A stretch of 64,000 nucleotides of DNA, from NCBI RefSeq assembly GCF_041886205.1, contig NZ_CP169029.1. One strand, given 5' to 3'. Both the position numbers and the translations under genes were made by a program. Under the pieces are notes generated by a model that had not been told where the DNA came from, ran no database searches, and saw nothing but the letters and a program-made list of their open reading frames with translations. Source of the DNA: Escherichia coli (GTDB lineage: Bacteria > Pseudomonadota > Gammaproteobacteria > Enterobacterales > Enterobacteriaceae). Numbering within the stretch: the first letter of the stretch is position 1; every line of letters begins with the position of its first letter. Shown here in pieces: positions 17,233 through 18,915 of the stretch.

Positions 17233-18626
17233 TTATAGGGAATTCAAGATATCTATGTTTGGAAGCTCCACGCAGTAGCAGCCGGTGCGGTGGCTCTCTA
17301 TGCCCGCCCTGTCTTTCATCCGTTTGCCCGTCAACATAAAGGTATAACCATCCAGTGTATTTCTGGCCCGTTTCTTACTCGTGTGGTTTATCGTTTTACC
17401 TTTTGCGTTTGCATAGCCACCCATAATGCCCAGGGTAAAGTCACCCAGTTTTTCAGCGTGGTATTTATAAATGTCCCCTCCAAGTTGATTGATAAATTGA
17501 TTGGTTGTTGTTTTATTTTGCCCATCACTAAGCTTACCAGAGGTTCTTCCGCCCGTAATCTTCATCCACACAGATGCAGACTCAGGCTGTGTATTATCAC
17601 TCACGGCACTGAATTGCTTACGCTCATTCAAATCCATGAGGAACAGTGAGTTAGCCAGTGCCATATTGGTAGCATAACTTCCGTTCTCCGGTCTGTATTG
17701 CCGGGTATCAGATGTGGGAAGATGACTGGTTAAATACCATCCCTTATTATCTGTCCCACTCACGTTTCCTTTCTGCAGTGTGTAATCATAAGCTCCGGCA
17801 ACCACGCGGTTCTTCAGAGAGAATTCTGCATCAGAATTTCCCTCTATAGAAATAATATTAATACCCTCTCTCGTCTGACCACCACTGCCACCTTCATTGA
17901 CATAAACGATGTCACTTTGACCAGAGGTATTACCTTTCACCACCAGACGATCCGTAAGAGAATTATCTCCTTCAAGCACACCACCAAGAGAAATAACACT
18001 ACCCGGTGTCCCGGTATAATTTGCCACGGTAAGAGTATTACCTGTACTTTCTTTTGTAGGATTCAGAATGATATTTTTGTTATTAACAAGACTGCCATTC
18101 ACAGTAGCAGAGAGCAGCTTTGCCGTACCAAAGCTTAAGTCAGCATCATTCGTAATATTCCCGTTTATAATGCTGTTATTAATGACAACGTTTCCATTGT
18201 TATTAACCGAACCATTAATTGTTGCCTGGTCTGAGATGTTTATATAGGCATTCTGGCTGACAGCCATATCTGCATTGACTACTGCAGAACCCAATATAAT
18301 CCCACCATTTTTAACGTTAACCCCCCTCGCCTGTGTCAATGTACCTTCATAAGACATGAATCCTGAGTTATCTTTGATAAGAGCACCATTCCCTGACAAC
18401 TCTGTATTAAAATCATAATCGCCAGCAAGATTGAGAATGAAATCGCCATCATTCTTAATTTTTGCTCCGGCTACAATACCATCAGTATTGATTGTGGTTG
18501 TTCCGTCAAGAGCGTCCCCCTCATCGATTCTTAAACGACCAGCGGAGTTTACGGTTGTATCGGTTGCTGTACCGCCTGATGTTACAGCCAGAAGGCCCCC
18601 GTTCTCTAATACAACATTTGATTTTT
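17233..18626 (-). pseudogene. Truncated AIDA-type autotransporter remnant (passenger C-terminal part, autochaperone region and only the start of the beta-barrel)
   Basis: Translation has passenger-like N/G/T-rich repeats then [19 protein letters not shown]...SVWMKITGG...[10 protein letters not shown], paralogous to the C-terminal region of the 9799-15219 gene, but stops after about 100 aa of the translocator; the N-terminus is replaced by IS-derived sequence. Confidence 0.65.
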
Positions 18627-18915
18627 GAGTCAGTATATCTGTCAGAGTGCGCGCACCTGCGGAACCCCGACTCTGGTTCCAGGCCCGGCGTATTTCGCTA
18701 TACAACCTGACTCGCGCCGGATCAATGGTATCGCGCCGCTTCTGCCAGTACCGGTAACTGCTGCGATGTACGTCCAGAGCAGCACAAAGGCTGACAACCG
18801 TGTAGCTGCCGCTCAGTCTGGTAACTATCGTAAACCGTTCAGCGAGTCGGACATCAAGAGCGAGGTAGCCTTTTTTAATCTCGTATTGGCACTGTGTGCC
18901 AGTATTGAAATCCAC
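18627..18915 (-). mobile_element. IS3-family (IS911/IS2-like) transposase fragment fused in frame to the autotransporter remnant
   Basis: First ~95 aa of the 560-aa ORF read ...[53 protein letters not shown], the typical N-terminal region of IS3-family OrfB; no orfA and no remainder of orfB; boundaries approximate. Confidence 0.5.

Follow-up and report, generated by a model that had tools for sequence, protein, structure and literature searches.

A 560-codon frame beside hipBA in Escherichia coli, joining an IS3-family remnant to an internal piece of aidA, is very probably a non-functional relic of a chromosomal aah-aidA module

We examined a 560-codon open reading frame on the minus strand of a 64,000-nucleotide stretch of Escherichia coli DNA (contig NZ_CP169029.1; hereafter the window), which is very probably the non-functional relic of a chromosomally integrated aah-aidA module encoding the AIDA-I adhesin and a heptosyltransferase. 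As the initial annotation had proposed, the frame is chimeric, and comparisons with the intact locus of the genome GF4-3 and with the insertion sequence ISEc31 resolved it into an N-terminal fragment of IS3-family OrfB followed in frame by a stretch from the interior of an AIDA-type autotransporter. The frame is an ordinary pseudogene in decay whose parent is a well-known virulence gene; it is already in the databases and without mechanistic novelty. RefSeq and GenBank nevertheless list it as an ordinary coding sequence (470 aa, or 560 aa as EKI53591.1) and not as a pseudogene, and virulence-gene screens that rely on the 3' part of aidA could score its carriers as AIDA-I positive. Further, the aah-aidA module, which is mostly plasmid-borne among the matches obtained here, has a chromosomal site next to hipBA that is intact in one complete genome and decayed in six; a search of the literature for chromosomal aah-aidA next to hipA, or linked to an IS3 element, found nothing relevant. 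The features of the frame and its surroundings are as follows, where L001 denotes the GF4-3 locus and all other coordinates are window positions.

17233..18915, minus strand: chimeric open reading frame, 560 codons, GTG at 18915 and stop at 17233-17235
18889..18915 (27 nt), minus strand: residues 1-9 of the frame, spacer between the stop of the MFS gene (18939) and the IS remnant
18623..18888 (266 nt), minus strand: residues 10-97, ISEc31-like IS3-family remnant in the OrfB frame
18870..18876, minus strand: A AAA AAG heptamer, the IS3-family -1 frameshift motif, kept in the remnant (read directly from the sequence)
Codon straddling the fusion junction: residue 98 (Lys)
17344..18622 (1279 nt), minus strand: internal aidA fragment, codons 562-988 of the 1195-aa AIDA-I of GF4-3
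Within 17344..18622, minus strand: residues 99-524, corresponding to AIDA-I residues 562/563-988
17233..17343, minus strand: residues 525-560, a 36-codon tail, and the stop; equals L001 9201-9311
18622..18623: junction of a 3,289-bp deletion, blunt, without microhomology
17344..17349: junction of a 766-bp deletion, with an imperfect 6-bp microhomology (ATAACC/ATTACC, 2 bp exact)
17031..17132: hipA-downstream sequence, with which the chromosomal backbone ends on this side

Megablast of positions 17031-18938 against 5,426 complete E. coli genomes returned matches with at least 80% query coverage in five genomes, along with many aidA genes annotated as "autotransporter adhesin AIDA-I", at 85-98% identity and for the most part carried by plasmids from porcine strains. 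In DNA, the remnant matches the plasmid aidA genes of porcine E. coli at 96-98% identity and the intact chromosomal aidA of GF4-3 at 99.8%, which identifies it as orthologous to AIDA-I; the 3 mismatches in 1279 nt are all non-synonymous, and the 427 retained codons specify a protein 99.3% identical to residues 562-988 of GF4-3 AIDA-I. Because the C-terminal 445 aa of the GF4-3 protein align end to end with the AIDA-I transport unit (PDB 4MEE, E = 5.6e-283), the parent is AIDA-I itself. Pfam searches of the intact 1195-aa protein identified an ESPR (1-28), 11 AIDA repeat stretches, an AC_1 autochaperone (739-844), and an Autotransporter beta-domain (913-1172), whereas the chimera gave one AIDA repeat (99-141), the AC_1 autochaperone (275-380, E = 4.2e-25), and a Pertactin-like region, with no match to either ESPR or the Autotransporter beta-domain. 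What survives of aidA therein takes in the last AIDA repeat and continues through the C-terminal beta-helix, autochaperone, and linker into the beta-domain, of which it keeps the first ~76 of ~260 residues, ending in NTLDGY at residue 988. Judging from the alternating sequence pattern, the kept piece of beta-domain would comprise the helix that spans the pore and approximately the first three strands; the initial annotation was right that the barrel is truncated but had placed the retained length at about 100 residues.

Set against the AIDA-I/Aah system, the remnant lacks the ESPR, ~10 of the 11 AIDA repeat stretches, and ~70% of the beta-domain, and aah is no longer found upstream. IS-derived OrfB sequence has taken the place of the N-terminus, where AIDA-I has its ESPR signal peptide, and 36 out-of-gene residues that of the C-terminus; in GF4-3 these residues correspond to non-coding DNA downstream of aidA, and they are not barrel. 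The earlier statement that the frame has neither a signal peptide nor a complete translocator agrees with the missing ESPR and Autotransporter matches. Kyte-Doolittle hydrophobicity did not discriminate as a signal-peptide test (1.67 vs 1.88), and our call is based on the absent ESPR match and the IS origin of the N-terminus. It is on domain grounds that adhesin function is excluded for the predicted product, which is almost certainly non-functional. None of the lost parts has moved elsewhere in the window: tblastn of AIDA-I residues 989-1195 against the whole window gave a single match, the paralogous barrel of an 1806-aa gene (43% identity), tblastn of the deleted N-terminal part of aidA found no displaced copy, and tblastn of aah, which is present in GF4-3 and on plasmids, found no match. 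This rules out a barrel carried on in another frame or elsewhere in the window, and no in-frame continuation exists downstream, in line with the initial annotation.

The origin of the chimera becomes apparent from the same site in GF4-3, where the order is lsrK, an ECSE_1600-family autotransporter, hipB, and hipA, followed by minus-strand aidA and aah, an IS3-family remnant, an MFS transporter, and a GH5 glycosylhydrolase. Aligned with this locus, the window falls into three collinear blocks separated by gaps of 766 and 3,289 bp.

Window 15000-17349: L001 6970-9317, 97.3% identity
Window 17344-18622: L001 10084-11362, 99.8% identity, 3 mismatches
Window 18623-22000: L001 14652-18029, 99.8% identity

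The 3,289 bp absent from the window (L001 11363-14651) hold aidA codons 1-561, aah, intergenic DNA, and part of the IS remnant, and with them gone the IS-derived OrfB frame continues in frame into aidA from codon 562. The 766 bp absent on the other side (L001 9318-10083) comprise the 3' end of aidA (207 codons and the stop) with 142 bp beyond it, so that the reading frame now runs 36 codons into non-coding DNA. Both junctions look like products of illegitimate recombination, and we infer that the change ran from the intact to the deleted form. None of the 5,426 complete E. coli genomes was found to carry one deletion without the other; ET201 and XJ5.2 each miss one junction solely through later IS1-associated loss. 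IS-mediated adjacent deletion was considered as the cause of the fusion and is unsupported, as the deletion stops within the IS remnant (ISEc31 position ~650), away from any IS end, and the remnant encodes no transposase. We also considered the 36-residue tail as a piece of transposase remnant, such as RefSeq annotates downstream of plasmid aidA, and rejected this because plasmid and chromosome are non-homologous in that stretch (plasmid positions 5118-5386 gave no match to L001 9190-9439). As a separate observation, the hipBA side of the window is 97.3% identical to GF4-3 compared with 99.8% for the remnant and MFS side, which is suggestive of a recombination boundary near hipA.

Taken together, these comparisons point to an ancestral order, surviving in GF4-3, of hipA, aidA, aah, a truncated ISEc31-like element, and the MFS transporter, from which two deletions by illegitimate recombination would have produced the form seen in the window. 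The 3,289-bp deletion would have brought the OrfB frame, by chance in frame, onto aidA codon 562; aah would have been lost in the same event, as would the promoter-proximal end of aidA with the signal peptide and most of the adhesive repeat region. The 766-bp deletion would have taken 207 codons off the end of the 12-stranded barrel and let the frame enter flanking DNA for 36 codons. The product, if made, would have no entry to the Sec pathway, no translocator, and no heptosylation, and so could not act as an adhesin.

The IS part of the chimera is itself a fragment. Positions 18623-18888 are 86% identical in DNA to ISEc31, of which we used a complete copy (L006; ORF of 1214 nt with a programmed frameshift) for comparison, and they correspond to positions 385-650 of the extracted element, or nt ~285-550 of its ORF. 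Over these 266 nt, the remnant shares with ISEc31 the tail of OrfA (its last ~20 codons), the frameshift region with the slippery A AAA AAG site, and the first ~85 OrfB codons with the N-terminal HTH_21 region, and both the OrfA and OrfB frames are present, OrfA without its first ~95 codons. Compared with ISEc31, the remnant has lost the ORF up to nt ~284, the DDE (rve) domain, and the inverted repeat at either end. No DDE domain was found, since the remnant stops at nt ~550 of 1214, and the first 97 residues of the chimera gave only weak HTH matches in Pfam, including HTH_Tnp_1 and HTH_21; likewise, no terminal inverted repeats were found, homology to ISEc31 being internal only (385-650). Because the ORF start, the DDE domain, and both inverted repeats are gone, the remnant cannot transpose. 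RefSeq flags it as missing both the N- and the C-terminus, and the longer remnant in GF4-3 (ISEc31 positions 385-776 plus 1241-1324) is dead too. At 86% identity, its source is an IS3-family element related to ISEc31 but distinct from it.

Searches with 140-nt queries spanning each junction located the relic, at 100% identity, in a small set of relatives. The IS::aidA junction was present in five of the 5,426 complete genomes (LHM10-1, VE-T9, CP52E, ET201, and wlxctx60), as was the barrel-deletion junction (LHM10-1, VE-T9, XJ5.2, CP52E, and wlxctx60). The remnant is further damaged in three of the six carriers: LHM10-1 has lost another 292 bp (window 17506-17797), a loss that shifts the frame, ET201 has an IS1B insertion with loss of 17135-17906, and XJ5.2 has an IS1A at 18278 with loss of 18279-31622. 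Such damage is as expected under neutral decay. CP52E aligns collinearly with 13.9 kb of the window (99.9% identity). The exact 560-aa protein has been deposited from E. coli N1 (EKI53591.1) and is called on 91 contigs, and the 470-aa RefSeq form on 19. We attribute the recurrence of the exact protein to clonal descent, because the flanks are near-identical, and this explains it equally well as conservation.

The signals around the start of the frame bear on whether it is used. The frame begins 24 nt downstream of the same-strand MFS gene, and neither a sigma-70-like promoter nor a terminator-like hairpin was found between the MFS stop (18939) and the GTG. No Shine-Dalgarno sequence was found in the 18 nt upstream of the GTG (TGGTAAGTAAGTTATTTC), and the first 130 codons include no in-frame ATG; RefSeq models in sister genomes (L002 and L003) instead use CTG starts at 18645 or 18633, giving proteins of 466-470 aa. 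Read-through transcription from the MFS gene is possible; we infer a chimera that is probably neither expressed nor functional.

Several features could nevertheless be read in favor of function. The frame has stayed open for 560 codons and the exact protein occurs on 91 contigs, which is readable as conservation and counts to that extent against a relic, as does the same-strand gene close upstream with no terminator-like site between. On this basis the chimera might be expressed, for example through read-through of an MFS-GH5 operon, as a cytoplasmic beta-helix and autochaperone polypeptide with a new or interfering activity. We consider this improbable: the frame has no Shine-Dalgarno sequence and no ATG, it is further disrupted in three of the six related complete genomes, and autotransporter passengers fold outside the cell, aided by the barrel and the autochaperone. 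The fuller form, in which the chimera would be co-transcribed with MFS-GH5 and translated from the GTG or an internal start into a cytoplasmic fragment whose selectable effect explains the persistence of the open frame on about 100 contigs, we hold to be somewhat less probable again. The reading as a relic of aah-aidA accounts for a collinear intact locus in GF4-3, for the lost domains and the lack of any relocated part in the window, for the poor start context, and for continuing decay, and it is also favored by the fact that every one of the differences from GF4-3 in the fragment (3/3) is non-synonymous.

Two further readings concern how the sequence arose. The initial annotation had taken the frame for a second, paralogous copy of the adhesin type encoded at 9799-15219, the two forming a long repeat pair that could drive homologous recombination. 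That neighbor, an ECSE_1600-family autotransporter in RefSeq, is intact (1806 aa, with ESPR, AC_1, and a full beta-domain in Pfam) and lies 2 kb from the remnant, across hipBA. It shares with the AIDA-I remnant the type Va class, the autochaperone and Pertactin-like regions, and the 12-stranded beta-domain architecture, and the protein alignment that had been suggested as a check confirmed homology (E = 2.7e-49), yet identity is only 31% over about 420-450 residues, which does not make the two the same adhesin type. The fragment derives from aidA, as seen in the 4MEE match of its parent, its 99.8% identity to GF4-3 aidA, and its 96-98% identity to plasmid aidA, while the neighbor belongs to the ECSE_1600 family. 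In DNA, the best blastn match between the two (word size 7) had E = 0.32 and the longest exact common word was 10-11 nt. Exact identity of 10-11 nt is too short for RecA-dependent recombination. With no significant DNA similarity between the frame and its neighbor, there is no long repeat pair for homologous recombination; as judged from these alignments the repeat pair is already refuted at the DNA level, and the whole reading is highly unlikely. Least likely of all is an assembly or sequencing artefact, such as contigs wrongly joined within IS or adhesin repeats. Assemblies do often go wrong at AIDA-type genes and IS elements, which are repetitive, but each junction recurs at 100% identity in five independent complete genomes, and the collinearity of CP52E over 13.9 kb at 99.9% also speaks against it. 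As to the neighbor itself, we equate it with yneO, a K-12 pseudogene that lies beside hipBA, and the ET201 copy is frameshifted.

The relic lies where the conserved chromosome gives way to accessory DNA. Most E. coli, K-12 among them, share the ~102 bp that follow hipA (17031-17132), beyond which the DNA is accessory, and the remnant accordingly sits at the hipA-proximal edge of the accessory segment, a position that had already been recognized from the window. On its other side, a block comprising the MFS transporter, the GH5 'cellulase family' glycosylhydrolase, and a LacI-family regulator (18939 to about 22690) is found in only six of the 5,426 complete genomes, always with aidA or an aidA remnant alongside, while the tcuR-tcuABC genes that follow the block occur in more genomes and also on ETEC plasmids.

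Positions 17100-17134 are a recurrent breakpoint, which may be a recombination or integration hot spot. Two genomes, wlxctx60 and XJ5.2, diverge from the window left of 17125, both with ...CAACATAAGTTAAAT... there, and left of about this point hipBA is replaced in them by defence genes or IS5; the match of VE-T9 begins only near 17125, and ET201 diverges right of 17134. The flanks of plasmid aidA show 84% homology over 17102-17221, and the 33-nt stretch 17100-17132 alone recurs, identical throughout, in at least one further genome (H117). In wlxctx60 (L003 1-5640), the side with hipBA and the ECSE_1600 autotransporter is replaced by a defence island that directly abuts the aidA remnant and carries a retron Ec78/St85-type RT with PtuA, an ABC-three-component system, and an AAA ATPase.
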